Assembly (NCBI GenBank): GCA_903856085.1
Contig: CAIOAT010000024.1
Coordinates: 3,180 to 67,179, forward strand
Reading direction: 5' to 3'
Length of the DNA: 64,000 nt
Source of the DNA: Candidatus Omnitrophota bacterium
Lineage (GTDB): Bacteria > Omnitrophota > Omnitrophia > Omnitrophales > Aquincolibacteriaceae
Positions 6,528 through 64,000 of this stretch are shown here, in pieces. A program made the translations under genes and the position numbers. Within the stretch, counting starts at the first letter, position 1, and each line of letters begins with the position of its first letter. The notes beneath the pieces were generated by a model. It was given only the letters and a program-made list of their open reading frames with translations, did not search any database and was not told where the DNA came from.

Positions 6528-6541
6528 AAACTCCTTATTCG

Positions 6542-15260: not shown

Positions 15261-15287
15261 GAAAAAACTTAAAAAACACTGAATCAA

Positions 15288-17172: not shown

Positions 17173-17177
17173 ATATT

Positions 17178-34170: not shown

Positions 34171-34244
<74 letters not shown>

Positions 34245-34304
34245 CTTTTTTATTTTCGGGATTATCGAAATCGCCGCAAAAGTCATCTGCTCCATTAAAC
34301 CGCT

Positions 34305-37300: not shown

Positions 37301-40300
37301 GTGGTCTTCACGCCATGGTTCGTGTTTGTAACTTTCAGGACATCGTCACAACGCTCCACCCGGGACGCCTCAAACTGCTCGGTTGGAAAATTTCCTGCGA
37401 CCGGCCAAGCCTGGGATTTTCCGTCCGGACCCGCCGCCGTGTCCAAGAGAAAGAGGACTCGACCGCAAGGATCAATCTGATCATATGAACGGCGGCTGAT
37501 ATCACATTCCTTGCCGAGGAGTTCGCTGTAAATTTCACCGTTTTCCTTGGCCACTACTTTGTATTCGCGGTTCGCCAATTCACTACTTTGGATGCGGCGT
37601 GCGCGAGACCTGCGCCGCAGCAAGCGGATCACGAATGAAAATCCCGTACAAACCAGGATACACAAACCAATGAGAACCAGCATTTGCGGCAACGATAGAG
37701 AATGTAAGTATGGGATCAACCCTTTTCCTCTTGCGGCATTTTGGAGCTTCTCGGCCGAACTCCACACTTCATCCCACTGCTCGCCGCGCGGGATGTAAAA
37801 AGGGATCAAGAGCGGGGCCCATGTCGCGAACCGCTTCACGCCTTCAGGGATGTACCGTTGTGCTGCCGCCTTGCCAATGAATTTCGAGACTTTCTCATCC
37901 AGCTTATCCATGCCGAGAAAACTCAAATTCACCAGCGTTGCGACGCGCAGTCCCATGTGATCCATCCAGATCAGGATCCGGAACGCATCGAACGCCAGGA
38001 TCCAGATGAACATCTTGAGACTCCAGGCCACGAACGCAGGCGCTGACATCGTGATATTGTTGTAAATGGCAAAAAGCGTCCGGATCGCACCGTCCTGGTT
38101 GTACCAAGTCGGGTTCGGCATCATGCGAAGGAACGTATAAATGATCGGAGACATCCAGAGACCCCACCGCAGCACATGGATCATCAGCTCGCTTAACTGG
38201 GCCAGGCCCGCTTTCGAAAAGAAAAATTTGATCGGCGTTTTATCTTTATCAAAGAACGCCTGCATGAACACCTTGTTCACGGCAAAGAGCCACGTAGCCA
38301 CCGACCATTTGATGACGCCATCCAACGACTCGGTAAAAAGCAATTTGACGCCGCCCGGACAATACCCCAAGTCCATTTGACCCCATTTACTGATCAAGAC
38401 CGGCTGGACGTAATGTCCCAGGGAATTCAAATAGGGATAGGTTGTTGTGGACATTTCTCCCAGCGAATTGAAAGCGGGATACGACGCATATTGCGCCGCG
38501 GAAAAATGAGCGGTGACATAAAGCTTGAATTTATAGAGAATGACCGCGACCTGCGGAACATCCATATAAAAAGCAACGGCACTCCCGAGAAAAACGCCGA
38601 GAAGTGAATCGACAAAATAAAGCCGCCAGGACTGAACCTTCCCGCAGCCCCGTGAGGCATAGTACACATCCCTCAGAAAACTTATGCCGCCCGAGGCCAT
38701 CAGACCGATCAAAAGGCCAACGAGAACCCGCTCCGGCATCGCTTTTCCGATGTAACCTTGTGCGAGCAGATAGGCAAAACCGAATCCGGCGACGGCTCCT
38801 CGAGCATAAAGCGTTTTGCTGCGATAGCTGTAGCGCGTCCGTTCAAAGAACGGGAGACTGCCATCAAAGGTCTCGATAATGGTCTTCACGAACGGAAACA
38901 CCAGAGCCCCAGCGAGGGTCCCGATCACATAAGGAAAGGAAGCCATGAATTTGAGCCCCGCAGGAGCTGCAAAGATCATGGAAAGCGCGTAGAGGATTGC
39001 CATCAGGATGCCGCTGTAGGCCATGCCTTTTTTCATGCCGGTCGTAACATTCTTAAAAATGTTGTCCTCGGAAGGCGCGATACGCTTGCCGCCATCCAGA
39101 AGGATCCCGGTAATAAGATAAATTTCTCCCCACAATCCGCCGAAAGAAAGCGCCGTCGCCAGAACAGAAATAAGAGCCCTCAATACCTCCGGCAATCCGG
39201 CCACCCCGGAGAGCGATCCCAAATTAGCAATGGAGGGAGCTAACACTACCCCTAAAGAAATCAGCAGCAGGAACAAATGAGCCTTGACCGTCTGAAGTAA
39301 CTTCCCTTTTGTCACGTACCCGATCCCGGCGGCAAGAAGTTCGTTGAAGACGAACACGACCAAAAGCCTGCCAATGCCCTCGAGAAGCGCGGGCCACGCG
39401 GCCAAAAGTCCAAACGTAGCGCTGTAGGTCATGCTCTGCAAGAGAGTCACGTTTTCCAAAAGAAGCAGCCAACCTACGAGGTACGGCGTCCCCACGATTA
39501 AAGCTCCGGGGACCGTCTTCAAATTTTTTCCGGACGAAGCGAACTCATGGGCATTGAAGATCTGATAGATCAAGAACGCGACCGTGGCCGTGAGCTTATT
39601 GATCATGAGCAGGTGGCTCCACATCGTGGGAGCCTGCAAGAGTTCCAAGCGGCTTGAGGATGCCGCGAGAATTCCAGTCACTAGGACATTCTGGAAAACC
39701 TCAACCGGCGTCAGATGTTTTCCAGTGAATTGATGCTTCAAACATTCCGCGATCAAGGCCCCCACCACTCCCGCGATAAGAATGCCCGTCATAGAACCCA
39801 GGCTTAAAATCTCTGCGGCCCCTAGCGCATAAATCCCTACCGCCGTCCCCAGGATCAATACGGTGATAGCGCCGTAGAGAAAATCCTTTTTAAGCCTCGC
39901 TAGGATCGAGGTTTCTTTCGGGGAAACAATATCAGGACCTTTGTCGCTTGCCGACCGAGACTGAACCCCCACCCGATTTTGGCCAGAGAGTTTGCTCGCG
40001 AACGCGGCCAAAAGCGCCAAAAGGAATGCGAGAATAAGGATCGATCCGAATTTTATAGCGATAAGGTATTTCTTGAAAAACGTGGTCTTACAGAAATCAA
40101 ACCCAAGATACAAGGTTCCCTTGATGGAATTCGCGTGACCTTTGGGGCTGATAATGAAGTTCACTTCTTTGAGTTCACCGATCTCCTTCCAGTGAATTGA
40201 TTTCTGGATCGCATTCCAGCCCGGCTTCAGACAGAGCGGAATCATCTGGGTATTCGCCGACCCGATCACCTCTGCATTGATCGAGAGCTGGTTAAGCTGA

Positions 40301-41612: not shown

Positions 41613-42092
41613 TTGTGTTCGCCGTTCCCCACGCCCTGTCCCCTGCGGCCTGTTCAATCCTTGCATTCTCAGGCCTCATTGATTAATATTCTCGGCATGG
41701 AACACGATAAGATCCGCCTTCTTCAATTTATGGTCTGCAAAGACTTTGAAATCGGCGAGCAGGACTGCTACACGGCCAATCGCGTGAGAAGCAATCTCCA
41801 CGTTCCATCCTTTCCTTATCATTTCGAAAAACTTTACGCCGTAACCTGCTGGCGCAAGGACAAAATGTTCCACAAAGAAGTGATCGAGTACTCCACCGAG
41901 GACGGACGCATCGTAAAGACGCCCCCCATGGACATCGAACCCATCACCTCAAGCGTTCTTTTCCGCTGGCATAAACACGCATTCCCCACGGACCTCGAGA
42001 TCAAAGAAAACAGCCTCCTTAACATCCGCGTCATCCTCGACTGGAAAGTCAATTTTGAATCCTATCTCATGATTGAAAAACGACCGGACTGA
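41613..42092 (+). CDS. Hypothetical protein (start uncertain)
   Basis: 159-aa ORF; no recognisable domain. The true start may be the internal Met at 41697 (MEHDKIRLL...). It overlaps in another frame a 32-codon ORF (41588-41686) that has a strong AGGAG RBS. Confidence 0.3.
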   Translation: MCSPFPTPCPLRPVQSLHSQASLINILGMEHDKIRLLQFMVCKDFEIGEQDCYTANRVRSNLHVPSFPYHFEKLYAVTCWRKDKMFHKEVIEYSTEDGRIVKTPPMDIEPITSSVLFRWHKHAFPTDLEIKENSLLNIRVILDWKVNFESYLMIEKRPD

Positions 42093-43347
42093 AGCGCTCA
42101 TGCCCCCTTTTGAGCCTCCGCACTGGACCCCGGAATTGTGGATGGCATTTCCCTTCATCGGATTGCTGTTCTCGATCGCCGTTCTACCCCTTGTCGCTCA
42201 CCGTTTTTGGAACCGCCTCAAAAATCAGACCGGAGTCTCGCTAGTCTTTGCGGTACCGATCGTCATGATCTACGCCCAACACTCCCCGCACCTTCTCGGA
42301 GAACAACTTCGTGATTATCTTTCGTTCGTCCTTCTCTTATCGTCACTTTACATCGCATCCGGCGGCATCCACATCGCCGGCGGACTGAATAGTTCGCCCC
42401 TCGCGAACGCCGCCCTGTTGGGCCTCGGCGCTGTGATCAGCAATTTCATCGGGACCACCGGCGCGAGCATGGTCCTGATCCGTCCGCTGCTGCGCGCCAA
42501 CGCCCACCGCAAACACCACGCCCACCTGCCAATTTTTTTCATTTTCCTTGTAAGTAATATCGGCGGCGCGCTGACGCCGCTGGGCGATCCCCCGCTTTTC
42601 CTCGGATTTTTGAGCGGCGTCCCTTTCTTTTGGACGCTCAGGCTTTTCCCCCTTTGGCTCGTGTCTGTATCGGTCCTGCTGCTCGTCTTTTATTTCACCG
42701 ACCGAACCATTCTCGCACTGGACAAAACATCTCCCAAAGCCCTCGTGTCCGGTGATCCCGTAAAAGTACGTGGAAAAAGGAATCTCTTCTGTTTTGCGTT
42801 GATCATCGTCGCAACCTTTTTGCCAATCCCCTACCGCGAAGCACTCATGATCGTCGCAGCCATCGTCTCCGTCTGGATCACTCCTAAAAGTTACCACACT
42901 GCGAATGGATTCAGCCATGTCCCTATTTTGGAAGTCGCAGTCATCTTTCTGGGCATCTTTATCACCATGCTTCCGGCGCTGGAACTGCTGAGAAACTATG
43001 GAGGAGAGCTGGGCGTGACACAACCATGGCAATTTTTTTGGTCGGCCGGAGGCTTTTCTTCCTTTCTGGATAATGCGCCGACTTATATGACATTCGCGGC
43101 ACTGGCGCAAGGCTTGCACCTGGGTGGACCGTACATGGGAATGCCTGAAACTCTTCTTTTGGCTATCAGCGCGGGTGCGGTATTCTTCGGGGCCATTACT
43201 TATATCGGGAACGCACCGAACTTCATGGTCCGCTCCATTGCCGAACACTCCGGATGGAAAATGCCGAGTTTCTTTGGTTATATGCTTTGGTCGATAGGTA
43301 TCCTGATACCGCTGTTTCTCCTTATTACCCTGATATTCCTCCGCTGA
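42073..43347 (+). CDS. ArsB/NhaD-superfamily ion/anion permease
   Basis: 424 aa; ~11-12 TM helices, duplicated-hairpin motifs (GALTPLGDPP ... YIGNAPNFMV) typical of the ArsB/NhaD/CitMHS permease fold. Track start is TTG; an in-frame ATG is at 42100. Confidence 0.5.
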   Translation: MKNDRTEALMPPFEPPHWTPELWMAFPFIGLLFSIAVLPLVAHRFWNRLKNQTGVSLVFAVPIVMIYAQHSPHLLGEQLRDYLSFVLLLSSLYIASGGIHIAGGLNSSPLANAALLGLGAVISNFIGTTGASMVLIRPLLRANAHRKHHAHLPIFFIFLVSNIGGALTPLGDPPLFLGFLSGVPFFWTLRLFPLWLVSVSVLLLVFYFTDRTILALDKTSPKALVSGDPVKVRGKRNLFCFALIIVATFLPIPYREALMIVAAIVSVWITPKSYHTANGFSHVPILEVAVIFLGIFITMLPALELLRNYGGELGVTQPWQFFWSAGGFSSFLDNAPTYMTFAALAQGLHLGGPYMGMPETLLLAISAGAVFFGAITYIGNAPNFMVRSIAEHSGWKMPSFFGYMLWSIGILIPLFLLITLIFLR

Positions 43348-43413: not shown

Positions 43414-46400
43414 TTACGCCGATTTCTCGATATCTTGCTGAGCTGCAAATTCAAGAGCGAGGGCTTCCATATTCATTACGAAAACGCCATTTTTTGATGA
43501 AAGGCCTAACAGATCAATGCCCTTTTCCTTTAATTTTGTGATCAGCATCCCGGGATTCACTTTCATAAGCCCTTGATCCATCGGTGACGCCGAGGCAAAG
43601 ATCTTATTGATCAGAACAACCGCAGCACAAACAAGATTCTTAAGTTCGGGGTTGTCTTCGCTATTAAAATCCGCCAAGATCGAAAGTATTCCGTTCTGCT
43701 TGACCCCAAGCTCGGTCGTTAAAAACGCCATAAGCGCTTCGTCCTTACTCGCATTGATCACGCCGGCCACAATCGCATCCGCTGATTTCCTTTCGCTGTA
43801 TCTGTATTTCATGACAACATCAGCCACTTCATTCCAGCCTCTCCCCACCGGGTGTTTTTCATCATAAAGCACAACCAGGCTCGGGATTTTTATCTTCCCC
43901 CGCAAGGCCTTAATCACGAGTTCCGAGTCGGGTCCATTATCAACGATCATCGGAACTCCAGAGCCGGGCATTTCATTAATCCTGTCAATGATAGCACTCG
44001 TAAATCTCTGAATTTTCCCAACGTCCTCGCCTCCGACACGCGCTCCCCTTACAGCCACAAAACTACCCAGCATGACCCCCGCAACGATGTTCCCCGCCAA
44101 AATATCCGGATCCCCATAACCTGCGAATCCTGCAAGGCGCAGCCGTAATTCTGGCCTCGAAGAAGTTAATCCTGTAAGTGCTTCGACATCCAATCCCAGC
44201 AAGCTTGCCATGAACTGATCGGCAATCTGCCCGTATAATGATTTTTCTTTTTCAAATCCCGCCAAGCCCCCTTCCATCATCCTCGCCCGAACCTTATCAG
44301 GATTCGCCCCATCACGCATAAGCACCAAGATCGCCGCAGCATCTATCTTCGGCAACTCCATCAGCGGCATATTAGCTAATCGCACTTCCGATCGGATTTT
44401 GGGACCAGCCTTGGACTTGCCCTCCGGGATTTCGGGGGTTTTAGGCTGCGCGGTAACTGGCTTTGCCGGTGAAACAACAGATTCGGCCTTTCCACTTTTC
44501 CTCGTCAGATCTTTTCTGGAGGACTTGCCCGATCGAGGGGTAACACCTGCTGCCAATTCTTGTTCGATCGATGGAAGGACGTACGCCATGTATTCTGAAA
44601 TAATCTGAAAAGCCAGACTGGGCTTCGAAACGTCTTCGAGACTTTTCAAACCTTCAAAAAACGCCTTCAGCTTACTGCCCGCACTTTTCTCGCCCGTCTT
44701 GAATCTGACACCGACATTGGCCGCAGCTTCTGCGAGCGCTCTCAGTTCTTTTTGATCCCTCTCCACTTGAACCTTGATTATATGAAGCTTGTCTTGATCT
44801 GCTTCTGAAAGCACCCCGTGATCCGAAAGGAGCAAGGCCTCTATTTTCAAATCTTTGGAAAGACGGGCTATTACCTTCTGAAGCGCTTCGATTAAAATAT
44901 CCTCTGTTCCATTGCGCCCAAACCCGCTCAGAACATGAATAGCTTCCAACCGCACGCTGAGCTCACCATCTGACAATCTCGGCTTGAGTACTCGATGCAA
45001 ATATGTGCTCGCCAGTCCGCCCCCTATTTTCAGACTATTTTCATATTTTCTGATCATTTCTATCCTCTCCCATGGATCGGGGACGAAACCCAAAAGAGCG
45101 ATCAAATCTTCGAAATCATCCGGCGTCTCGAGTTTAAGACCGATTCGTGATTCTGCCCGATTAGGCGAAAGCGCCGAGGCAGAAACGAGGCGGTCCCAGC
45201 GAAGGATTGTCTCACGGAGCAGAACGCGGTAACGACCCAGGCGCTCATAGTATTCTTTTTCCGCGGCCTGCTCGGCCATCCCCGGCTGTTTCTTTTTGAT
45301 CGATAAAGCCAAACCGTATTTGATCACGGGCAATTCTTTTGCACCGCTAAAATAATGACTAGAATTTCCCGGAATCGCGAGGAAAGAAGTAAATCCCCTC
45401 AGAAATTCCTGGCCGTTCTTCGACGCGAGCAGTCTCTCCCCGTTATTCAATGGAACAATCGCAAGGGGATCGGCAAAGAACTTCATCCATTCCTTCCCGA
45501 ATTGTTCGTCTGTCATCGCCGTCACTTTTGCCGCATATTGCTGACCGCCCCAACCTTTCAAAATATTCCACTTCCGGAGATCCGGGACATTCCAACTCGC
45601 CTCCGCACGAAGTTCCTCGAAGGATTTCATCCCCGAGTTCTGAGCCGGAAGCTTCCCAATCTGCTGAGCACCCGTGGTTGCAAGAAATTTGTCTGCATTA
45701 TCCTTCAGCTCTTGGGATGCATAAAACGTCTGCGTCTTTTTGTCGAAAATTACCGGTGGCAGAGCACCGTATTTTTCAGTTTCATAGAACATCGGCTGCA
45801 GCCTGAGACGCGCTACATTGATCAACTTCTTCTCTTTCAGTTCTTTGGCTTCCCGCTCAACTTCCTTTAGGGTCATCGTACCCCAAAGTAGCGGCTGCCG
45901 CTTGAGGCTACTCACCGTCTTAAGACTAAGATCCTGAAGATCCGCAACCGTCATCTTGTTCTTGATAGGCCATTCGATCACGAAACTCTTATGACCCGTC
46001 TCAGTCGTTACGATTCTCCATTGGTTTGCCAGAACGATCTGCTGATTTTCAAGCGATAACGTGTCATAGTCGCCGGAGAGATACGCGGGACGACCCCACG
46101 CCACATCATCCATATTTGCGGAGGACTGGAATGTTCGGATATTCCTTTCGAACAAGAATTTTGCCGCCTCCAAAAGCGGCCCCTCGACCAGATGATCGAG
46201 ATCGGACATGCGCGTTACGATCGTCGCAGCTTCCAGAATGGGATTCTCTTTGCTGATCTTCTTCGCTCCCGCACGCGATTCCACGGACCGAACCTCGGAG
46301 CGGGCTGGCAATACCAGCAACACGCCTTTTCCCTCTTTTGAATTCCAGATCTGGATCGCCGGACGGCCGTCAAGCATTCCATAGGTTGCCTCGAGCTCTT

Positions 46401-49400
46401 CACCGTGATAAAGCGTCGCTTTAGTATCAAATCCCGGTTGGCGAGTGGTTTCCGTGAAAGGAATCCGCTCGACGCCGGCTTTCGTATAAAAAAGCCGCTT
46501 TGCATCATCATTCGAATTGGCAGTCTGGATCAAACTATCAGGATCAAACTGATCCCACTGATACATGAAAGACTTTTCCCGGATTCTTCCCAGGATCATC
46601 CCCGGGAAAAGATCGTCCGGAAAATTCTCAGAGTCAATGCCCGTCAAAGCCAGTGCCGCAAGAGCATAAGGATCGCGAATAACTTCCGCCGCCATATTGA
46701 GCAGAATTCGTTTTGCCAGAACCCGGCGGCCATTTTGCCCGATCGATCGCAGGGCAAAGCGGTAGGCCCTCTCAAGAACCGGACTGTACGCATTCAGTGT
46801 GCTGAAGAAAACCTTCAGATCCCGGGCCACGACATCAACGTCCCGGAACGGCACGGCGCCCGAATACACAACTTCGCCGGCATCATCCCGATAATAAACG
46901 TCCGCTCGATCTGCATCGTGCGTATCATAAAGAAGCATGCCTTGGTCCCTAACGAGCCGCTGGGAATTCTGCAGGATGTTCGCAAGCGCTGACGGATCCC
47001 GGAAATACTGCACCGCCAAGCGAGCATTGATCACGACATCGTATTGATGGCTCGCGTCAAAGACTTGCGGAGACGCGGTGATGTTTGCCTTTGGATCCTG
47101 GATATTGATCCGCTGATACCAGACTCCCGTTTCCGGATCCTGCCACATCCCATTCGCATCAAACTGGAACATTTCCTTACGCTGGAATTGATCCTTCGCT
47201 CCATCATATGCGAAATAAACAGGCTGGAATTGGATATCGTTCGCCACCAGCTCGATCTCGGTCCCTGAAGGCAATGCCTGGCGCAGCATATCGCGAAAAA
47301 GAACCGCCTTGCTGTTACGACCAGGCTTCTCAGCAGCGCCGATCAGAAGCACCTTGATCTTTTTCCGTGGCTGATAAGGAAGATTCAGCAAAGCATCACT
47401 CTCGGGATGGGCCTCCGGTCCGAACCAAGGATGATCATTCAGCACCCTGTTACCGTTGCGAAGATCCATCTGCTCAATAACTTGAGTGTCATTGAGCCAC
47501 TTCCCTGCCAGGAAATTCGTCGCGGCAACAAAGAGCGGCGAGTTACGGTTCCTATCGGTGATCTGGACCGTGTAATGAGATAGAAAATCCAGAAACTCCT
47601 TCTGCACTTCAGGATGACGCTTGAGCGCCTCGAAATAGTTCGCCGCGGTCTGGACCCTTGAGGCAAACTCGGCTCTCGTAATTTCGCTCGCGATCCCGTA
47701 ACCGACAAAATCAAGGATTGCGTCCACCAAAAAGAATTTTTGATAATTCGCGTACCAATGTCCTTGCGAGCGTAAAGTTTCGATCCGCTGGTCCCGTGAC
47801 TGCCGGATACGGCTTCCAAATTCGCTCGCATCCTTATCAATCAAGGAGTCAAGCCCTTCACCCAAATCGTCCTGGATCGTCAGCCCATCGTAGGGTTTGT
47901 CGCTCCATTTGGCATTCAAGCCGTCCAGATAATTCACAAGACTATCAAGCAGGTTATTGCTTGCAGCAGCCTCCGCGGTAAATGACTTACGATCCATGAT
48001 CCACTGCCCGCTCGGATCCACAAAGATGCGGGTATAGCCTGAGTATTTTCCGTTCACAAAAATGTCATAGATACCGTTCATCTCGTCAACCAACTTCAGG
48101 GATATGCCAAAATCAGCCAACGGAGCCGCTTTATGGTAGTACGGTGCACCATCCGTTCGTCCCAACGATCCAAGCAGGGGCAAATCCCCGACCGCAAGCT
48201 CTGAAGCAAGGATCAAGAGCATTCCGTTCGCCGCCGCAAGTTCTTTGAGCTTGGGGCCTATCGTCTTTTCAAGGGCTTCATAATCGATACCAGAATTCTC
48301 AATTCTTTGAAGCTCGATCACTTGTACATCCAGACGCGGAACGAGATGAAAAACAAGGTTGGGGGTACCAGCAAAATCCAGATAAATAAAAGGTGAAGGC
48401 GTTGGATCGTCGGGATCCTGCATAACGACTCTTCCTTCGACATTTCCGCGTCCTCCCCGACCGGCGTCTGCGGCCGAGACCGCGACGTGATTTTCGTCAA
48501 AATAAACCCTCATCGCCTGCAAAGCTTTCGCATACGGAGTGACGAGATCAGCATTCTGAAAATGCTGCCGACTCAGAAAGCTCGCCGCTTCTGCGGCAAG
48601 ACGGACATCGGCCGTGGGGTATTTGGCTTTTTCGCCCGGCGTCATAGAGGGATAATTCTTCTTTGTGTCGGGCTGAACAAGGATGCTGTGCAGTGCGGAT
48701 TCCTCCGCCGGAACCTTGGCGAGTTCAGAGGGAACTTTATAGTGACCTTCACCGGTCAACACATTGGCTCTGCCATCCGGATCGAGGATGACCATAGCTC
48801 CGCGGGTCTTGATATCCCGGCTCACACCGTGACGCTTGTCGAGTTCATCCTTGATCTTTTGTGCGGTCGCTGCCAGAGGGTCACGGTTATAAAGTTCCCG
48901 GTACGCGGCATCCCTTTCAGCATAACGATTCGTATAAATGCCGGGAGCCCCCGCTAAAGCCGCAACCTCAACACCCGAATCTTCAGCCATCACATAGAAC
49001 GGTCCCGCGATCTTTCCCGCGGCCTGTTTCCTGTAAAATTCCGCTTTGCGCCGCGCAGTGTCCTCATAGGAGGGTGAAACTTCTTCAGGAGCTTTTGCAT
49101 CGATACCGGCTTCAGCGGGCGTAATCACCCGGATATAGGGAAAAGAACTGAAATATTTTTTCCAAGTTTCAACCTTCCTCGGATTTTGCGTCGCAACAAG
49201 GACCTGGAGGATCTCTGCTGAGGCCGCAACTTGTTTCCGCACCTCCGCCCGATTTGTTTCAACTCCGGGTTGATTGGGGATGGTGCCATAAGCGGTTCCG
49301 AGCTCTGCAATTCTTCTTGCAATATCAAAGTCTCGCGGCTTACCAAATTTAACCCCCGCTATCAATTTTTCAAAACGTTCATCGGGTGCACGCCCTCTTC

Positions 49401-52400
49401 CGAGCGAGATCATCTTAGGTTGATATTCACTCAGCCCCATGAGCGAACTAAAAACATCCCCTCCCTCGCTTTCGAAAGCAACCACATCATAACTCCCATA
49501 GGGTTTGAGGATCTCCCTCAAAAATGCTCGCTGCGCAAGAAATCCATAGTTTGCCATCCCGGACATCCCTTGGGGAAAATGAGTGAAGAAATACGTGATC
49601 ACCACCACGCCAGAGCGATCCTCACCTTCTTCTTTCGGAAAAACCAAGAGACGGAAATTGTAAGTCGCCATATTGGAAAACAGTTGCTTCCCTTTTTCGT
49701 CATACACATTTCCTGTTATCTCAAGGGGCGCATCAGAGCCGTCCTTCTTTTCATTCAGTTTGTAGCTGTAGCCAGTTTTTTTGAATTCATCCCATTGCAA
49801 TTCCTGGCGGCTCACAGTTGCCGGGATTTCCGAGAGTGCAATAAATTTGAACTCGGCTTCCCGCCACGGATTCCGGACTCCAAAACGCGTATCTTTGACC
49901 CATTTATCCCGATACGGATTCACCACTCGCGTCACGGACCGGTTAATAAGACGGGTCACCACAAAATAGATCGCTCCTGCAACACCGGCTAATCCCGCGA
50001 ACGTGGATGCGAGCCGGCTCCACAAAACATCTAAGATCCCGACCACCAGGGAAGATACAAAAGTCGCGATCACCAAGTAACTTAAAAATCGGGCAGCGCG
50101 ATAAGAGAACTCTCGCCCCTTCGGGATTTTGATCAGCTTGCTCGCAACCATACCATTTTCAAACGCCGCGATCACTTGTTGAGCCGCAGACCCTGCCCGT
50201 CCCACCGTCTGATCTCCGGCAGTTCCATCCGTTAGATCCTTCACAAACGTTCTGAACGCTTCGGTGTTAAAAACCCCGGCCTCGAACAAAGTACCTTCTA
50301 ATCTTTGATCCGGACGTATTAAAATATTTTTCAGGGCACTTTCCTGCCCGGGCTGGTGCAGGTGGCCCCCCATCCAACCCAGCAATGCATCAAAATAGAA
50401 CGAAACAGTTTCTTTGTGATTCAGAAAGGTCGATAAATCTTCAGCCGGAGATGTCAAATAGCGTTTGAGCGTCTCCCTCGGAGTTTCGCTGGCCGCACTC
50501 CCCTGAATTCCAGGCTTGGATAAACTCAATTTGATCACGCGATTCGCAAGATCCACCGTCGCAAAATACGTTGTATTACCAAACGTCACCTTATCGTTGT
50601 TGATGGGATGATTCTGCCACCTTACATCCCAAGAGCTTCGTGTAGCGATAGAGGGCTTTCCGTCAGCAAATTCCGCCATCAAAAAGTGGCGGCCCCCCTG
50701 CCATTGAAACGCATAATTGCCCCTGCCATCCGCGCCCATGACAAGATCGACCGGCTCCCCGAGATTAAAGAAAATATCCTGCCCCCGAATCTCGGAGCGA
50801 GGCGAAGCGCCCATCTCTTTTCGAATCATGCGTACGACAGATCCCGCAGCCTTGGCCCAGGATTGGGATGGATCTTTTCTTTTTTCTTTCACCACTTGGT
50901 AAGCCAAAGCGACCGACGCTACGATCCCTAAACCCCCAAAGGCATAGCCTACGATTTCTTGTTCGATCGGCACTCGTTGAATCGGTTCGAAGAATTTGAT
51001 GCCATTTTTAGAATCCGCGATAATGCGATCAATATAGTAGTCACCGTACTCATCAAAAACCTGCATATCCCAGACATTCTGCCCCGTCTGAGTATTGCGC
51101 TTAAGCTCTCCCTGGATGCTGAAACCTCTCTGAAATGTTGACGTGCTGACATCCATATAATTTTTTGTTTTGAGATCGGTGAATTCTCGATTGAGAAGCT
51201 CTCGAAGATCCGCCGCAAAAGATTCATCCGGCATCCCCGTACGGAACAGATACGCCTTTCCGGCAGGCTTTACGCCCTGCAGTTTCAAAGCCGTTACAAA
51301 ATTGGCCACATCGCTGCGAAGATCGCCGAGAGTCTTTCGATCTCCCTGATCATCGTACGGTCTGAAATGTGCTGCCACAAGCCGGTTATCAGTTGTCGGG
51401 AGCATAAAAATATTGCATTGATTCCCCTGCGCTGGCTCGACGGTGAATTTCCCGCGACTGATTACTCCCGCCTCATCTTCAGCAAAACTAAAACCACCTT
51501 CGCCTTGCTTGAATGCCTTTCCATCGCTGATATGGAACATAAGGCCTTGAGCTTTTGCGGGTGCCAGGGGTTGCAATCCCGGGGCATTTGTTTGCACTAA
51601 GGTGGCGGCTATCGTTTGCCCAGCGGTTTGAAACGGCGCTGCGACCAAGCCTGCACCTGCGCCTAAAAATATCCCCAGGAAACCGCGACGCCCCATCTGC
51701 CCCCGCAATTCAGGACGAGGTGGGAGAGCCATGAGACTGTTATGTTTTTCGGTTGCCGCATCAATAACATCAATCGCAGGCTCACCAAATTTCTCAGCAA
51801 GAACTCTTAAAGATTCGAACGCCGTCGGAGCATTTGTTCGATCCCCGGCAGCCACCATCGCCGCAAATTTCAGCATGGCAAAAGCCAGTTCGCCACGCGA
51901 CGTTTTCCGTCCTTCGATGCGATTTGTTTCTTCAACAGATTTTTCCAATAAGCCACGGATAGAAATATCCGCCCCCGGCTTAAGCGCATCACTTTCCATT
52001 AGCCGCAAACTGATATCACAAATAAAATCAGGGTCTTGTCCCTTCGACATGGCCGTGAAACGGTTCATTTTGTTCAAGACATCTTGAGAGCGAGCTTCAT
52101 CCAAGGCATTTTGGCCATGGGCCTCAAACTCGTTTTCCGCCTCTCTCGCAAGCTTGAAATCAACTACAGGTGCCGTAATCGCTGATAAAAAGTTTAAAAT
52201 TGAATGGGCAGCATATCCACGGCTTGTATTCCCCCTCTGAAGCAGGTTTTCGGCCGCTCGGACACGCGCCAGAGTATCAACAATCACATTATGATCAGGC
52301 ATTTTTCCGTTATACAGACCCTCCATCAGGCCAACACTCTCAATAGCCGACTGGGTCAAAGCTTCCTCGGCTTCTGCCGCAGTCCTGATCTGCATTTCCC

Positions 52401-55400
52401 AACGCGCATCGGCAAATGCTTTTTCAAAAGAAGACCTTGCATTAAATTCACGGTCGAACGGCTCCAAAAATCGGGACAAGCTTTTCACCGTCAAATCACT
52501 CAACGCTGAAGGCCTCTTGCCATTCAAGTCATCCAATAACTTTTTAGCTTCTATAAAATCACCGGTAGCCATTGCTTGTTGCATTTCATTCAATAATCTT
52601 AAATTTTCACTCCCCGCATCCCTCACCTCGGCGCGCTTTATGGATGAATCACTGATAGCAATCTCAGGATAGATGTATTCAAATAACAGAGCGCTCAGAT
52701 GCTTCTTGTCTTCATTCTGCCGTCCGAATCCTCTCTGGCTTGCCTTATAAATTTCACCTACTTGAGTAGCCGTCAAAGTCGAGTAGTTGTACGCTGAAAG
52801 AAATAGACCTAGCGCAAAAATAATGGCCGTCGGATCGTCTTTTTTGAATGTAACATTTCCGTCGGCAGTACGATCCGAAAGGATGAACGGCCAAATAAAA
52901 TCCTCACCGTAACCTGACGGCAAATTATGTTCCGACGCGACATCCGGCATTCCAGTTTGGCCTATCAAAAGCCCCAACATGACATCCACGCGGGTGGAAG
53001 GGAAAGACGCATGAAGCGCGGCACCTATGGCAAGCGCCGTTTTCCCTGACCCGAAATTGTCAAACACCAAGATCGGCTTATTGACGTCCAACTGTCCTTC
53101 GGCCTGTTTCCGGATCATTTCAATAAATTGCGCCACAGCCGTTCCTTTGTCCCTATCGCTCTGCAGTTTGAGGAACTCGCTAAAAAAATACTTCTGAATC
53201 TCATTCCCGCGTCTTTGCAAATCTCTTATATTCTTAAATTTTTTGTAGGCCTCTTGCAGTATCCGTTCGGATTCCGCGTAAATAACTTTGTGGGTCTCTT
53301 CGAATTCGGCGGGGCCTCGTTCCACCGTGATGGGCAATTGCCCTCGCCAAAAAGCCACCGCCGTCTTGTCCGTATATTGACTCACTGGGAGGATCGCTCC
53401 ATCCCTCCACACCGGCATGAGTTGATGATCAGGAAAACGCGATTTTATTTCCTTATGGATCGCGGGCAAATAGAGGAGGAACCATTTTTCTCCGCTATCC
53501 AGGCCGTAAGGAAGTCTCAATCTGCCGTTCCCCTCCAGGAAATCTTTTGTTTTTTCCTGGAAATTTTCCTGGATTTCACTTAACCCTAATTTGCCAATAA
53601 CTCCCTGAAGGACTGCAGCGATCTCTTGCCGGGTCAGGGGATACTGTCGGCCGTCTTGGTCATGGGGCAACAGTGACTTGGGCGGGAGAAATTCCATCTT
53701 CCCCAGTTCTCCGATCGTCCATGTTTCCTTGCGGGAATAATAGTCGACGAGATGATCCACGAGAGGCTGGGGATCATAGACACCAACGCCCGCCGGACGA
53801 ATGTTCATGGGCCCGGCTGCCTTTTTAGTCTGAAATGTTACAAGCTCGAAAGCCCTTTGAAGCCATTGCTGGATTCCGGGAGCTTCAGCTTGCGCTCCCG
53901 CAATCCCCCCTCGCACCTCGGAGCGAATACTGGAAAGCATCGCCTTAAAATTAACAGGCTGCTGGAAGCGTGCGAGATGGACCAACGTTCCTTTTTTAAT
54001 ATTTTGCGAGAGGGAGACTGGCTCCGGGACTCCCGGAAGCATGAGGTACCTTTCGAAAGGACTACTGATCTCCAAAAATCCTCTATTCTCCGAGCCCGAT
54101 GCATTATCCACGCCATAAAGTCCCAGACCGCGCCCCGGTTTTCCTGACGTAGAAACACCTTTTTCAAGCATAAGCGGTATATTCCGCATGCCAGGTCCGT
54201 TGTCATACACAAAAAGCTCCACCCCCTTATTACCTTGAATCTGAACTTCCCGGCCCACCAGGATTCCCTGGATCTCTCCGGCTCTCGGCGGAAGCGGCTG
54301 ATGCTCTTGCAAGGAAACCAAAAGATTCGCCAAATGTTCTTCGTCAAACGCCTGCGCCCCTTTCAGATGGTCAATATTGTCCATAAGTTCTTTAATCATA
54401 AATTCGATCAAAGTGCGTTGATCGTAAGTTTTATAATCAGCATGCGCCACGTAGAGGAAAGGAGCCGGATCATTAAGCCAGCCGATTTGGTTCAAAAGGC
54501 GCTTCACTTCTTCGAACCCTAAAGAAAAGCCCTGGCCACGAAGCAAATCTTTTGCCCGAGAATCTCCGGCGAGAGAATCCTGCAGCGCCTGCAGTACGTC
54601 ACCCTCCACATCCCAAGGCGTTCCACCGGCCCGCGCCTCGGCACGAATTCCAGGCTCTCGTTCCAGCATAACCCCAAGATAAACAGGCCGGAGCGCCCAC
54701 TCCTTCCGGAGAACCTTCTCATCTGTAGCCAGCTCTTTAGCCCACGCTTCAATATCGGGAACATATTTTGGATCGAAACCTTCGAGCACGTTTACCGCCC
54801 CCCTCTGTCGAGCCGAGCCTAAAACTTGGGTCGTTGTGTAAAATTCCCTTGGCAAACCCTCTTTATTGAGCCAGTAACCGTTTGGACGCTCTTCCTTGGA
54901 AGCCTGAAAATTAAAATCACGCAAAAGGACATCGACCAGAGCAGGATTCGAGGTGGTAAATGCATATTTCACGTCTTTAAACTTTCCAACGAAAATCCCG
55001 ACGAGTTGCTTGAGAAGACCCTGACCTCCCAGGCCTAATTCGAGATCTTGATTGATATAAGTACCGTAGATGGCCATGACACCATCCACCTCTTTGGCAT
55101 ACAGGAACATATCGCTTGCTGCAAAGGCGGGTTTCTCTTTCTCATTCGGATTTTTAAAGAAAAGATCGATTCGTTTTGTTGTAGCGTTGTCTTCTACCTG
55201 CATTTCAAATGTCAACTTCGCACCATTCCGCCCCTGCAACACAATCTCGCGGGGCTTCAAAACATCTTGCGCCAATTTCTTCCAGTCAAGCGAGCCCAAT
55301 ATTTTGAGATTCGCAAGCATCTCGTTCATTGTAGGGACCGTGCTTTCAGAACTTCGCTTTTTTTCTGTCAGGAGGAGAAGAATAACCTGCAGATAACCCA

Positions 55401-58400
55401 GACGAAAAACGTCGGGAAGGATTTCCATTTCCTTGGCAGTGATGGGCTCTCCTGTCGCCCCTTGGTATGCCACAAAGAACTGACGGACTTTGTCCAAAGC
55501 TATGGAAGTCCCGTCTTTTTGATAGCGAAGGAGTATGGCACTGGCAAAATCCGCAACTCGCGCATCGGGGTGGGCATATTCGAAGTCAAAAACGCCGTTT
55601 ATTTGATTCTGCCCATATCGAAGGTTCCCCTGATGGAAATCACCGTGGACAATCGTGCGCGGAAGTTGATCGAGAACTCGAGGGGTTAAATGAGTCCTGA
55701 TCTCTTTGACCTGCTGCTGGATCAGATCAAAATTTTCGACAAAAATCTTCTCGGTCGGCGTCAGAGGCGGCCCGCGTTGCTGAATCTCTTGGCGCATCGA
55801 TTCGAGTCTCTTTAAGCTCCCTTCAAAATCTGTCACGGGAATCAATGGCGGCCATTCATGCCCCTGATAGGATCTTCCGGGAAGATCCAAGTTCCGCGTC
55901 GCCATATGGATCTTGGCGAGCAATTGGGCAGCCAATTCCAAGTCCCCACCCTCCACTTGCCCCCAGTCATATTCTTTTCCGTCTATATAATCAGAGAGAA
56001 CGAAGGGTTTCCCATCGATCATGATAAAATTTTCATTTTGAAGTGTTGGGCGGATGACGCTTACGGGGATTCCGGCCGACTTGAGATTCTCCAATAAACC
56101 CGCCTCCCATTGGATCAAATCTTCGGTGTTTCGATAAAGGGGCGCTTTTAGGACATACCGCCCGGTTGCATCCTGGACCGTATAGACATTCGCCCTGGGT
56201 GTCGGCTGGATCGTCACATCACCCTTCAAACCATAATTCTTCGCGACTATTTCTTGCAGGCGCTGGATATCGACACGGACGGGTTCGGTTTGTACATCGG
56301 CGCGGGTTTCGGCGCGTGCGGCATTCGGTGTTGCCGATGCCGCCAAGGCCCGGCTGATCGTTAAGACACCTTTTTCCGGCTGCGTTTTAGAAATAGCAAG
56401 GGTCCAATGATATGTTCCACCTTGTTGTGACGCTCCCGTCTGACGTGAAAAAACAGCTGCTGTCCCGTAATTTTCGGCCAAATGCAAAAATTGATCCAAC
56501 CCTTCTCCAGCTACAGTATTACTCCCCCTTACTTTTCCTGATAGCGCCTCCTGAACATTCATGCCTTCCCCGCCATCAATCGTAATTCCAATAATTTCAT
56601 GCCCATGTTTTACAAAAATAGCAACCCCAAGACTATCGCTTTGCGGAAGTCCGTGTTGGAACACATTCTCAACCGCAAAGAACATCGAGTTATATAAGCT
56701 TGGCGCAGCTTGAGGATGCAGTTTGTCACTTCCAATCCGCTTCATAAGATTTTGAACAACTTCAGAGCTTCGCTTCCATCGATCCTGTCTCCCGTACGGA
56801 ACATCCGGAGTGCGAAGAATTTCCAAGGCAACCGCTCCATAATCGTTCAGCGCCTTAATGTGCGGCTCAAGAGTCTCCCTCTTAACCAAAGCAGACCACA
56901 AATTATAAATTTCATTTACAAAGGAAGGCTCCAGCCCTTGGAATACCCCATCATCACTTGCCCAAACAGCACGTGCTTCAAGGCGGGATTGATTCACGCG
57001 GCTCTCGGAGCGCACAGGAACAAAAACTGTGCCATACGAGCCTACACTGTTCAGAAGGATATTCCCGGCCTTGTCCATTTTCATCGTCATGTGCGTCCGG
57101 GATACTGACTTGAATTCCTCTCCCGCCGGCACGACAAGGTCAGCCTTAGGAGACCGCCCAATCACCAACTCCGCTTCTTTCAAGGAGAGTGGCTTCTCTG
57201 ATGCCCACGACCCATCCACAGCACGAGCCGTAACAAATACTCCATCGGTCGTACTCGTCACATCAACATAAACCTGGCCGGCAAGCTGCATACGCAGCGG
57301 CAATTCCGTAGGGACATCTCCGGTAATTCCTTGCGAGGTGATGGTTCTCTTAGGGGTCGCTGCCAAAGCGGTTAACTTTTCAATCATCGGGTCGAGGTTT
57401 CCCGTGAGCCCCGCGTCATCTTCGTTTCTCTCCTTCAACTTCACCAGGCGATCAATAACCCGACGGATCAATACGGGTTTCCGGCCTTTGAATTCGCTCA
57501 CAAATTGATCGCTCAAACCACCCTTGATCGCTTTTAAAGCGGCATCTTCGATCCTGCCTTCGGCAAGTCCGAACGCGATCGAAGCCACTTCGTCCTCTTT
57601 ATTTTCACCCAACCGTTCAGCGAAAAGTGTCGGCCCCACCCCTTCAAGGGAAGGATAGAGAGCATGGGCTTTCATCTTGTCATAGAACGCACGCGCATCC
57701 GCTTCGGAAAGAAAGTTGATAACGATCGGCGATATCTCATCGGGATCATAGGAGAACGTTTTGTCGCGAATGCTTTGTTTTAAATATTTAAAATTGATCC
57801 CCACGCCGCTGGATGCAACCGCCGTTTCCTTCACGATCCTGACCGCATCGTCAAAATGCGTCGGCACGACATTAAGATAAATTCTCCAGTTATTTCCAGG
57901 ATCTTTATCGTAAAACTGTAAATTCTCGTACGAATGCCACCAGAATTTCCATCCAACTCCCGTACCGAACTCCTCAGGATAAAAGCCTTTTAATACCTCC
58001 GTCTTCTTTCCCGAAACTGGCTCCTGGATAAGGTTCGCATTCTCGCTGCTCAGATTCTCGACCCTGAACTGGCTTGCACCGATCCGCGTAATCTTTATGG
58101 ATTTCCTGGGGTCTCCATCCTTAAGCCCGAATCCTTCCGGATTCGAAACACTTTCACCCCTTGCAATACCTCTTATTTTGTCCAAGACTTCATCGGCATC
58201 ACGATTGTCCAATATGTAGGGACTCATCGCTATTCTTTCAAAGATGCTCGGGTCAAGGAGGTAGAAGTCCGAAGGATTTTTTACATACTGACGCGCACGA
58301 CTAATGGCAGGATCAAGCCTTACAGCGAGGTTGATATTGCCTCTATAAATATCGGGATCGTAAGCCCGCAGCTCAAGAGCCTGATCTACGCCGAATTTGA

Positions 58401-61400
58401 TCTGAATCGGTACGCTGTAATTCATTTCAACGGAAGCGCCCGGCGCAAGAGTAATGCTCTGGGGCGTTTTGGATTGGACCGCTTTAATGACAGGAGAAGA
58501 GGCTTCCAAAGCATCAAGGACCGCGCTGCTACGCCTGGCGAAATCCGTATCATCAAACTGCATGGACTGAAGCGCGGCGATCTGCCTGTCGATTTTTGCA
58601 AGCAACTCTCCGGCTATCTTTCCGGCAGCGCTGATTTTGCGGACATCACCCGTTGCTTGGATTGTCTTAAGCGCCCGCTCCACTGTCCGACGGTCATAAT
58701 TCAAGCGCGCGCGAACCATGATATCCCGCTTCAGGAAATACGCCTGAACCTGAAGCGGTGTCAATTCGAGGACATTCAAAAAGCGCGCTTCTTTGGTGCC
58801 GGATTTTTCTCCCTCTAACAATCGTATGCCCTGCTCATCGTTGAAAGATCCTAAAGACGCAAAATCACCTTGGACCCAATCCTGCCAATTTTCACGGCAT
58901 GCGCGTACAGATAATTCCAAAATATCCTTCAGCTGACTCTTCTGCTCTTCAAAAAAGATCGAGATCCTTAGTGCCGACTCGGAATCAAGACCGGTCAGAT
59001 CAGGCTCGAGGGAGTTTACCCGCTCCATAACGCGCGAAATCTTTTCCCCATCGATCCCCTGCGGCCCTGTGAGAGCATCAAAAATGATGGAGGAAGAAAC
59101 TAGTCTTCCATAAACCTTGTTCAATCCTGCGGAAGCCAGGTCATAAAGAACGTAGCGTTTGACGCCATCGATGACGGGCGTTTCCATGTTATGGTCAATC
59201 CCAAAATCATGAGCCTTGGTCAACGCGAGGAAAACCATAAGATTTTCTATCCCGGATCCGGTAGTTTCGGCAGGTAATTCTGCGGCCGTCAGGGTTTTTG
59301 CATCGCGAACCAGTAGTGCCCTTACTTTGTCCGTTTTTGGATCGTTGACGCCGGCGCCTTTTAAAAATTCATCCCATTCCTGGCTGAACTTTCCGGGGAC
59401 ATTATCTTTTTGCAACGAAGAAATCTCAACCCAAGGAGGAACATTGACCCCTAAAGCATCCGCGAGCTTATAGGCCCGCAATTCGTCATTCGTATCGGCA
59501 GGAACATATTTCAAATACCAAACGAGACCTGTTGCCGGATCTCTTAATCTCCAAACCCCTGTTTTCATTTTCACTTCGATCACCAAGTCCTGTAGAGCCG
59601 GCGGCGTTCTTTGTCGTGCGCTCTGACTACCGGCAACCGCCACGACTTCCCGCTCAACAAACTCCGTACCGTAGGACCCCGTAGATGTAAGCTGAATATT
59701 GCCTTTTTTATCTACCATGACGATCATGTGATCACGAGAGATCCGGGTATCTAAAAGCACTTCGGCCTGATGGATGCGTCCAATCTTGATGGTTGTTTCA
59801 ACCCCCTCAGGAACCGAGTAGGTCCGAGCCTTTCCATTCGATGCAACAGTAACTTGCAAACTCCCCGATGGACTGCGATTAACATCCACATAAGCCTCGA
59901 CTCCGGCGAGCTTCATCCGGAACGGAAGCGCCTTGGGTGTCTCACCTTTAATATGGGTCGCTTGGACATTAACAAGCGACGCCTGACCCGCCACAAGCTC
60001 CGCAGATTCACCAAGCCCTGGTTTCCGGATTTCGGATCTCACTTCAGCGCGAGTGGCGGCCGTTTTGAGTTCTAGCACCATAAAATGCCGTCCTGTGTTA
60101 TCGTTCATTTTTTTGTCCGTCGGGATCTTGAACCCGAACCGGTCCGCGTTCTCTTTGATCATGGCGTAACTGCCATCCTGCCCCTCTCGCATCTCCCCAT
60201 AGACAGGAAGACCGGGAAACTTATCGCGGATCTCGCCCATGAGTTGCAACAAGAGCTTCCCTCCGATCCCCGATTTACGCTGTTCCGGGTCGACGGCAAG
60301 ATCCATGACATAAATAATGTCACGCTTGGTGTCCGGGTCATACCCCACATAAGCGATGACATACCCCATCAATTGACCGTCCCGGTAATAACCTCGGCTC
60401 AGATTCTTACGGCGATCACCTTGCGCCATTTCATTCAGCGCAGCGCGAGCCAAGGAGTTTTGAATGCCGGACAATCCCTGGAGAAGACTGGGAGCGAGAT
60501 TCCCGTAGACCTTCCCTTCCAACCTGCTCACATCCAAAATATCCTCGTTATCGAGAGAATAAATTCCCGTCGCAGGAGCTGGGGCTAGCGGCATTTTTAC
60601 ATCCAGCGGAATTTCCGTGACCTCGTCACTTTTTTTATCCGTGTAACTTAATTTCAATTCCGACATAGTTTCATTCTCGACAGTGTTTCCCGCCAGACGA
60701 TAATCGCTGTTATCCACCCCAATCCTCAACTTGGGTAAAAGCGGCAAGCCCTGGCTCTTTTGATCCCGCGCATAGCTCTTACTGGTCGGAAACTTCGCCA
60801 TATAACGCTCGAAAAACTGTCTGTAAGTTTCCGTCACGAAATCATTCCACGTTTTTCCTTTACCGATGTCTTTTCCTTCATTCATCTTCCGAATAAAGTT
60901 CGGATCCGCTTCAATATTATCAGCCGCCATGACCACACCCGTACGCCCCACGGCCTCAAACTGGGAGTCCTTGAGTGCCTCAAAAAGATTGAAGTGATCG
61001 GGTTGACGCTGGAACGCAGCATCCAACTTGGGGTATTTCTCTCCCAAGGGCCTGTCCAGGGTGAGCACCGACGTGATGATGCTCTTATCATAAAGATTTC
61101 CAAGCTGATCTTTGACTTGAACTGTCAGCGCAAAGATCGCCGTCGCAGGATGGGAATAAACCCCTTCCTTTCCATCTCCGAACCCCATACAACTAGGCGT
61201 CTCATCTCCTGCAGTTCTGGACCGGTAATCCGACTTGGGATAGATCTGAGCTGTGAAACGATCACCGAGCCCCTTGCCATCAAGAGCTTTCTTCATCGAA
61301 AGGAGGAATTTGTTGTCCTCCTCACCCCGCGCAGACTCCGGTCGTGCCATGATCGATTCATACCGTGCAACGAGGATATCCCGAAATTGGATCTCGACCG

Positions 61401-64000: not shown

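Follow-up and report, generated by a model that had tools for sequence, protein, structure and literature searches.

A 64,000-nucleotide stretch of the Candidatus Omnitrophota contig CAIOAT010000024.1 (the window) carries on its minus strand a giant open reading frame (ORF) that is still open at the right edge, and it raises the question of whether such a gene makes one giant protein or a chain of proteins to be separated after translation. We found the translated frame to be divided by a five-residue pattern, R[AS]ExR, which occurs 11 times in the window against 0.29 to 0.35 expected (2000 shuffles gave at most 4) and recurs, together with two conserved protein ends, in a family of Omnitrophota giants with unrelated middle parts. 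We propose that the R[AS]ExR sites are endoproteolytic processing sites and the gene a putative polyprotein, a reading to which we assign a probability of roughly 0.55 on these sequence patterns. A giant ORF as such is expected for Omnitrophota; the novelty lies in the punctuation code and the two-ended chassis. The first-pass annotation of this DNA had suggested a giant scaffold or a translocated effector. To the latter we give a low probability, and the single scaffold as proposed is not supported by our results: the R[AS]ExR punctuation, the conserved chassis, the shuffling of the units between motifs (the cassettes) and the internal export signals point instead to separable proteins.

The giant gene and its punctuation motif

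With 6861 sense codons, the giant frame is the longest stop-free stretch of any frame in the window, the runner-up having 2332 codons, and it closes with a stop codon at 43414-43416 (Table 1). The first-pass annotation had taken the frame to be genuine, larger than the window and too long to have arisen by chance, and on each of these points we came to the same result. The probability of 6861 stop-free codons at this composition is ~1e-156, the remaining two same-strand frames over the region hold 313 and 399 stops, every 600-codon tile shows GC1 > GC3 > GC2 (GC content at the three codon positions), and codon usage correlates with that of 11 neighbouring genes (r = 0.91). The first in-window start codon is a GTG at 63936, upstream of which the frame runs on to the edge, also as annotated. 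The complete gene of 24.7 kb was called as an 8243-residue product on contigs of three samples (ENA ERZ1426818, also in NCBI; ENA ERZ27313068, contig k141_264038, at about 2359-27090; JGI 3300022555, Ga0212088_10000748), and a look-up via the neighbouring 2320-amino-acid (aa) gene placed the locus on at least 18 contigs. Since the product is called at 8243 aa, the N-terminal 1382 aa, encoded by the 5′ 4.1 kb, are missing from the window; residue numbers given here for window features count from the start of the 6861-aa window fragment, not of the full protein.

An artefact, in the form of a misassembled chimera, a collapsed repeat or sequencing errors that removed the stops of a row of separate genes, is so improbable that it can practically be set aside. 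The origin is metagenomic, and the two contigs compared at the DNA level, which come from different assemblers, are 100% identical to the window across 26,963 bp; because both are identical to it, they are not independent populations and offer no independent test of polymorphism. However, the same 8243-aa call in three samples, the exact match between assemblers, the uniform coding signature, the lack of internal repeats, and dozens of related genomes with equally long ORFs of the same architecture at the same locus all speak against an artefact. The giant ORF is real, chromosomal and part of an 8243-codon Omnitrophota gene. A chance fusion of separate genes, which the first-pass annotation had named as a possible refutation, holds true insofar as protein units are fused, but neither chance nor artefact accounts for an architecture found family-wide.

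The motif was defined post hoc from reading the window translation, in which RAEVR, RSEVR and RSEIR recurred. None of the remaining 29 ORFs in the window (12.8 thousand residues, kaa), the 2320-aa GH94 gene included, contains it, and its 11 copies all fall outside Pfam domain envelopes; the inter-motif segments number 12 to 13. All six Arg codons (CGC, CGT, CGG, CGA, AGA, and AGG) are used in the motif, and position 2 is encoded by GCT, GCC, GCG, GCA, TCC, or TCG. As the codons differ from site to site, the constraint acts at the level of protein rather than DNA, and a DNA-level repeat or recombination site was dismissed on this ground.

Several motifs adjoin recognizable domains (Table 1). 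Pfam and NCBIfam matches above cut-off in the 6861 aa were limited to APH, Ham1, FHA, and GNAT, and PDB sequence searches retrieved relatives of two kinds only, homoserine kinase and RdgB/Ham1. The first-pass annotation had listed FHA, kinase, GHKL, GNAT, and ITPase domains, of which GHKL stays below threshold (24.0 versus 26.4 bits) while the other four stand; its view of the content as catalytic and signalling rather than adhesin- or RTX-like fits both these Pfam families and the absence of internal repeats by self-BLAST of the window protein, which rules out a repetitive adhesin or RTX type. Tile-wise scans gave a faint signal of a second FHA domain. The window cassettes also include a P-loop segment, a Tat-signal domain, a membrane segment and GHKL-like segments, with ~4 transmembrane (TM)-like helices in total, and no PADLOC model of a known defence system matched. 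In an exhaustive HMMER search queried with the last 1200 aa, the ~200-aa domain behind motif 9 matched more than 100 (about 200) stand-alone proteins, themselves of ~200 aa, and it also occurs inside five unrelated giants (P0026, P0044, P0052, P0098, and P0134).

A two-ended chassis with exchangeable cassettes

Relatives of the giant protein were found from its C-terminus. K-mer-seeded searches with the first 1100 and the last 957 aa of the window protein returned no matches, not even the giant protein itself, which seems to be missing from that index; residues 1-600 as the query found no related loci in genome or metagenome contigs, and an exact-DNA scan for the window-edge sequence found no match. 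In the exhaustive HMMER search, by contrast with the k-mer-seeded ones, the last ~340 aa proved 41-62% identical to the extreme C-terminus of other long proteins (4080, 6099, 3383, 6629, 4003, 2316, and 1613 aa). These have in common an ~700-aa N-terminal region with a signal peptide, unrelated middles, and R[AS]ExR, observed versus expected 9/0.31 in P0004, 14/0.26 in P0005, 12/0.11 in P0082, and 8/0.13 and 9/0.51 in others. Giants that share just one internal domain with the window protein are without the motif. This replication in relatives offsets the post hoc definition of the pattern, which otherwise counts against our reading.

A genome scan with an alignment of the N-terminal domain (N-domain) identified 137 loci among species-representative genomes; almost all of them carry the label Candidatus Omnitrophota, and a few are from Auribacterota, Planctomycetia, and Elusimicrobia. 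The N-domain nearly always stands at the head of a very long ORF, often still open past 10 kb. The motif is enriched 20- to 100-fold in every member at ≥38% identity and in several at 26-30% (e.g., observed versus expected 11/0.27 in L003, 13/0.19 in L010, 13/0.28 in L027, and 14/0.27 in L044), and many of the most distant members have zero motifs. Its density is 2.21/kaa in 32 family giants versus 0.14/kaa in 130 flanking genes of the family loci. An unbiased k-mer enrichment ranked RSE.R / R.E.R as the top pattern in motif-bearing members and gave nothing comparable in the distant ones, and a search of the motif-free N-domain clade for an alternative punctuation motif yielded nothing convincing. 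In a neighbor-joining tree of 62 N-domains, the motif-bearing proteins formed one clade.

The N-domain consists of a signal peptide and ~650 aa, with an ~300-aa helical insertion. Its catalytic-type residues lie in a QDAH...EGA...ERD...GGFHT pattern; among 62 sequences, H116 and E144 (L005 numbering) are each conserved in 97%, and R500 and GGFH525-528 in 100%. The best Pfam matches, both below threshold, were PF01963 (E = 0.012; 15 bits versus a threshold of 26.8) and PF04187 (E = 0.053), and we assign the domain, with moderate confidence, to a putative TIKI/TraB/ChaN/erythromycin-esterase-type fold; the equivalence of its conserved residues to catalytic residues of solved members is putative. 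The assignment is only moderate because Foldseek with the whole, mostly helical N-domain model was negative and the N-domain profile found nothing meaningful among PDB sequences. In length, insertion and sub-threshold Pfam scores, the domain differs from the known TIKI/TraB/PrgY/GumN/ChaN/erythromycin-esterase superfamily (PF01963, PF04187), and to our knowledge no giant protein headed by a TIKI/TraB-type domain has been described before. Among the structural relatives of the N-domain are two effectors, HopBA1 and RRSP. The window gene itself probably carries the N-domain, judging from its C-terminal module (C-module), motif, synteny and gene length.

The opposite end is a C-module of ~330 aa, found in all complete ORFs of the motif-bearing clade. 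Its tail is nearly invariant in complete family ORFs, '(S/A)(I/V)x(K/Q/S/T)AA-COOH', and in the window (43417-43431) reads ...IEKSA. An Ala-Ala end is reminiscent of recognition tags of the ssrA and tail-specific-protease types. One complete family ORF, L025 (9959-12865; 969 aa), is a bare chassis in which the N-domain leads straight into the C-module, and both cassettes and a strict motif at the junction are lacking; in other species the cassettes appear to have been inserted into such a chassis.

Between the two ends lie 0 to >14 unrelated cassettes of single-protein size, the median inter-motif segment being 336 aa. Their content and order vary between relatives while the locus stays syntenic, and the swaps follow the motifs. 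The window APH cassette matches motif-bounded ~360-aa cassettes in two relatives (the fifth segment of L021 and the fourth of L006), in alignments that begin at the first residue past the motif. Among 98 homology blocks between middle regions of different family members, the start falls within 15 aa past a motif in 52% and the end within 15 aa ahead of one in 36%, versus 7% at random, and 50 of 78 motifs internal to such blocks align with a motif of the partner. A stand-alone 333-aa protein (P0015) starts exactly at the motif position preceding the C-module of the giants, and the alignments of the stand-alone homologues of the ~200-aa domain begin ~10-25 residues past motif 9. The predicted local distance difference test score (pLDDT) was <50 for the residues just past the motif that opens the C-module and for the tail following the N-domain, both of which are thus predicted to be disordered.

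The variability of the sites also bears on whether the motif acts at the level of nucleic acid or translation, as a recombination site, in internal (re)initiation or by ribosome skipping, so that the cassettes would be made separately without a protease. Cassette shuffling exactly at the motifs would fit, as would position 4, which is often Val, Met, or Leu (possible start codons) and is encoded by GTG in 5 of the 11 window sites. However, this position, mostly V/A/M/L across the family, is taken by Ala, Ser, or Thr at roughly one site in three, synonymous positions are free to vary with no conserved DNA or RNA element, Shine-Dalgarno spacing is lacking, and in most cassettes no Met lies close to the start. 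The motif is also unlike known 2A-type skipping peptides, and we consider a mechanism of this kind very improbable.

Proposed processing, its candidate protease and the alternatives

Some cassettes carry export-type signals of their own. In 33 family proteins, we found 57 strongly hydrophobic internal segments; the start of 14 of these lies no more than 45 aa past a strict motif, where 5.8 were expected, and for the loose motif [RKH]xExR, the number was 19 versus 7.0 expected. The post-motif segments resemble signal peptides or anchors in that a hydrophobic h-region comes after a basic n-region. In the window, the variant motif RPELR precedes a twin-arginine-like signal peptide, GQMG-RRGFLGIFLGAGAGLVAAPF, which contains RRGFLG and resembles the Tat (twin-arginine translocation) consensus S/T-R-R-x-F-L-K. 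Since Sec- and Tat-type signals work only at a free N-terminus, these segments are the indirect evidence that speaks most strongly for cleavage at the motifs. As a separate observation, position 4 of the motif was Leu in 10 of 19 sites preceding a signal-like segment (RSELR, RPELR, RQELR) versus ~6 of 69 motifs generally; Leu-type motifs may be a sub-class of sites or part of the signal n-region.

If the gene is a polyprotein, a single long translation product would be cut into ~15 separate proteins of fixed stoichiometry, and released units with their own Sec- or Tat-type signal behind the motif would be exported or inserted independently. The cutting enzyme could be the N-domain, as its superfamily includes the endopeptidases TIKI and RRSP alongside esterases and a haem binder, or alternatively a trans-acting Arg-specific protease of the cell. 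The N-domain is the leading candidate and the only constant one, no other cassette having proved universal in a search for a universal protease cassette. Some members contain HExxH cassettes (P0004 at aa ~1270-1300 and P0009/L013 at aa ~930-950; 'AIAIHELSHW', 'AGHELSHG'), the one in P0004 within a hydrophobic stretch and resembling a membrane metalloprotease; as a general processing enzyme they were rejected, being sporadic in the family and absent from the window protein. Even so, the N-domain is a doubtful candidate for the motif protease, and we rate it low because motif-free giants begin with it too and because it has a signal peptide. The fuller proposal, in which R[AS]ExR would be a 'cleavage code' read by either the N-domain or an Arg-specific protease, with ~15 products and with motif-bounded cassettes as the units swapped between strains, is tentative, and we hold it somewhat less probable than its converse.

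Several points weigh against the polyprotein reading. Its support consists of sequence statistics, from which cleavage is predicted, and the presence of the N-domain in the window gene is an inferred one, the N-terminal 1382 aa lying outside the window. The co-segregation of the motif with one N-domain clade could reflect shared ancestry and not co-evolution. The N-domain heads motif-free long ORFs too, so its role may be a different one, e.g., anchoring, and its signal peptide fits poorly with the cutting of cytoplasmic cassettes unless this takes place before or during export. The bare chassis, which joins the N- and C-modules without a motif, indicates that the two ends may act as one protein.

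Some of these points would agree better with an uncleaved, membrane-anchored multi-enzyme scaffold of 0.9 MDa whose domains would be strung like beads, with the motif between them serving as a hinge, for docking or for modification, e.g., by a partner protein or a kinase/FHA circuit. The conserved ends, i.e., the N-terminal signal and domain and the C-module with its AA tail, suggest that the intact chain matters, L025 connects both ends directly in the absence of the motif, and neither Pfam-type scans of the window part nor the universal-cassette search found a dedicated protease; published work, moreover, treats large Omnitrophota giants as proteins anchored by a signal peptide and TM segments. 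On the other hand, a flexible linker needs no specific five-residue motif with two Arg and one Glu kept invariant through cassette swaps, Sec- and Tat-type signals right behind the motifs would be functionless in an uncleaved chain, and stand-alone homologues start at the motif. We therefore regard a scaffold as unlikely, albeit the strongest of the alternatives.

Clearly less probable still is a MARTX-like exported multi-effector protein delivered to prey or host, with the ends serving export and translocation and the cassettes freed at the motifs inside the target. The parallel in design is close, as MARTX toxins (Vibrio and relatives) likewise have conserved termini flanking variable, strain-specific effector cassettes separated by defined processing sites, and the MARTX effector RRSP shares the TIKI-type fold matched by the family N-domain, for which HopBA1 is a further effector relative. 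Omnitrophota are reported to be predatory or host-dependent, the cassettes are ATP- or acetyl-CoA-using enzymes that require a cytoplasm, relatives have an N-terminal signal peptide, and a type IV pilus/type II secretion system (T2SS) cluster lies 23 kb away. However, Pfam scans of the window part matched no RTX-type glycine-rich repeats, and Peptidase_C80, the inositol-phosphate-activated cysteine protease of MARTX, was unmatched in the window part, P0004, P0082, and P0009. Type I secretion system genes do not adjoin the gene, whose family neighbors are housekeeping-type (transaldolase-PGI, LysM-amidase, KTSC, SNF symporter, and CitMHS), and the Tat and Sec signals of bacterial type and the TM segments inside the chain suggest that sorting takes place within the producer. 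MARTX sites are cut at Leu-(Ala/Ser/Gly), whereas the family sites are R[AS]ExR; relatives also have an N-terminal Sec-type signal, and the family does not belong to MARTX.

Known giant proteins and the surrounding locus

The polyprotein reading invites comparison with viral polyproteins (picornavirus, flavivirus, potyvirus), which share with the window gene a single ORF, units of mature-protein size and a short junction motif; flavivirus polyproteins also have internal signal peptides that become active after cutting, as those of the window family would. The window gene differs in being chromosomal and bacterial, at a syntenic housekeeping locus, and its family has no recognizable chymotrypsin-like, papain-like, or NS3-type protease, with cleavage being predicted only. 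Of the marks of a polyprotein, the gene presents several unrelated protein-sized units in one ORF and a specific short junction motif. In design it is closest to MARTX toxins or viral polyproteins, yet it lacks the features that define membership of either.

For Omnitrophota, we compared the gene with the 'Archaeovorins' of West-Roberts et al. 2023 (bioRxiv 10.1101/2023.11.21.568195) and with class 1 of Nielsen & Lui 2026 (bioRxiv 10.64898/2026.06.07.730766). The shared features are the phylum, one ORF tiling unrelated enzyme domains (GNAT, HATPase-like, methyltransferase-like, kinase), a majority of sequence with no Pfam match, a signal peptide in relatives, and a T2SS/type IV pilus cluster nearby. 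At 8243 aa, however, the gene falls under the cut-offs of both sets, ≥30,000 aa (genes >90 kb) for the 'Archaeovorins' (bioRxiv 10.1101/2023.11.21.568195) and ≥10,000 aa for the Nielsen & Lui catalogue (bioRxiv 10.64898/2026.06.07.730766). Published catalogues of Omnitrophota proteins of this latter size class comprise 916 and 5,761 proteins, and V. archaeovorus has one of 39,678 aa. The features of the former are a SecA DEAD-like helicase, numerous TM regions, glycosyltransferases, glycosyl hydrolases, HEAT repeats, NUDIX and SAM methylases (bioRxiv 10.1101/2023.11.21.568195). In the 6861 aa of the window, in contrast, SecA_DEAD, C39, S8, glycosyltransferase, and HEAT were unmatched, as were the Pfam families of glycosyl hydrolase, NUDIX, and SAM methylase, and the TM-like helices were few; P0004 carries a weak HEAT_2 match. 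Closer to class 1 of Nielsen & Lui is the presence of many distinct Pfam families, none of which dominates by copy number, with APH, FHA, GNAT, Ham1 and a sub-threshold HATPase_c each occurring once or twice.

Both surveys describe multi-enzyme giants and suspect cleavage (bioRxiv 10.1101/2023.11.21.568195; 10.64898/2026.06.07.730766), and one of them states that the cleavage points are unknown and that the lack of them blocked splitting the proteins for structural analysis. A junction motif, a TIKI-like N-domain and a conserved C-module go unreported in both surveys, and a full-text literature search for Omnitrophota with polyprotein returned nothing relevant. The motif, chassis and cassette shuffling together would provide a first concrete means of telling whether these giant proteins are cut, and at which points, and the motif gives a rule for splitting giants in silico into foldable units. 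If the predicted cleavage takes place, it would be a rare large virus-style polyprotein strategy in a cellular genome and would mean that either the TIKI/TraB fold or an as yet unnamed Arg-specific protease has a new activity.

The window is otherwise an ordinary diderm chromosome, with genes for RNase G, a CCA-adding enzyme, RmuC, AsmA, a PAS kinase with its response regulator and a MiaB-like enzyme, and with a single RNA gene (Table 1). The CitMHS protein convergent with the giant gene is 61-77% identical in amino acid sequence to those at family loci in named Omnitrophota metagenome-assembled genomes (MAGs). Close family loci have a transaldolase-PGI fusion, a LysM-amidase, a KTSC protein and an SNF symporter upstream and the convergent CitMHS_2 downstream; these conserved neighbors are housekeeping genes and were rejected as functional partners. 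The 90%-identity cluster of the GH94 protein, whose members are named 'cyclic beta-1,2-glucan synthetase' by JGI, holds NCBI entries labelled Candidatus Omnitrophota bacterium. Along with the CitMHS synteny and the family loci, almost all of them in Omnitrophota MAGs, this agrees with the attribution to Omnitrophota made from the sequence at first pass, and the giant gene sits at a conserved locus of this lineage with species-variable cassette content. The pilus/T2SS-like cluster lies ~23 kb from the 3′ end of the giant gene; T2SS-like genes near Omnitrophota giant genes were noted by West-Roberts et al. (bioRxiv 10.1101/2023.11.21.568195). Both long source contigs stop ~2.3 kb upstream of the giant gene start, a space sufficient for the SNF-symporter gene of related loci, and their common break point may mark a repeat or a strain-variable region.

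Table 1. Features of the window (aa, residue in the 6861-aa window fragment; positions in the 64,000-nucleotide window)
Feature	aa	Position	Strand	Remarks
Giant gene, 3′ 20.6 kb (five-sixths of gene)		43414..63999	-	6861 sense codons + stop
GNAT acetyltransferase domain	1204-1260	60220..60390	-	PF00583, 28.2 bits, cut-off 20.7
Motif 1, RAEVR	1317	60037..60051	-	immediately follows GNAT cassette
FHA domain	2279-2327	57019..57165	-	PF00498, 29.1 bits, cut-off 20.7
Motif 2, RSESR	2330	56998..57012	-	immediately follows FHA domain
Motif 3, RAETR	2562	56302..56316	-	opens APH-kinase cassette
APH/CotS/homoserine-kinase-like phosphotransferase domain	2604-2842	55474..56190	-	PF01636, 92 bits
Motif 4, RAEAR	3119	54631..54645	-	
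GHKL (HATPase_c)-like stretch	3223-3302	54094..54333	-	PF02518, 24.0 bits, below 26.4 cut-off
Motif 5, RSEVR	3359	53911..53925	-	
Motif 6, RAEVR	3789	52621..52635	-	
Variant motif, RPELR	4095	51703..51717	-	Tat-like signal 5 residues on
Internal twin-arginine-like signal peptide, GQMG-RRGFLGIFLGAGAGLVAAPF	4100-4125	51625..51702	-	follows RPELR; RRGFLG
Further transmembrane-like helix	4348-4368	50896..50958	-	
Motif 7, RSEIR	4401	50785..50799	-	
Two neighbouring transmembrane-like helices	4635-4683	49951..50097	-	
Motif 8, RAEVR	4917	49237..49251	-	immediately precedes Ham1/ITPase cassette
Ham1/RdgB-type ITPase domain	4934-5124	48628..49200	-	PF01725, 57 bits
Motif 9, RSEVR	5900	46288..46302	-	precedes ~200-aa domain
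~200-aa domain	5911-6106	45682..46269	-	no Pfam model
Motif 10, RAESR	6281	45145..45159	-	
Motif 11, RSEVR	6536	44380..44394	-	opens conserved C-terminal module
Conserved C-terminal module	6541-6861	43417..44379	-	helical part + Rossmann-like core, ends ...IEKSA
CitMHS_2 transporter gene		42073..43347	+	convergent with giant gene; synteny marker
2320-aa GH94 protein		34393..41355	-	cellobiose-phosphorylase / cyclic beta-1,2-glucan-synthase-like
tRNA-Arg(TCT)		34171..34245	+	sole RNA gene in window
1094-aa protein		30608..33892	+	MFS-like, spermine-synthase, TPR matches
Type IV pilus / type II secretion-like cluster		10178..20638	-	secretin, PilM, PilC-like T2SSF, two PilB-like ATPases

A second, unrelated giant family came to light through the shared ~200-aa domain (P0044, 3231 aa; P0052, 4692 aa; P0016; and P0098). 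Its members share an N-terminal region and a C-terminal 'GGIDLNP...PVIINITPV' end, and the motif D-x-A-[MVIL]-[LMT] occurs 10 times versus 0.76 expected in one case and 12 times versus 1.76 in another. Punctuated multi-cassette giants may accordingly be a more general design, and the D-x-A-[MVIL]-[LMT] punctuation hints at punctuated polyproteins as an overlooked general expression strategy in bacteria with giant genes.

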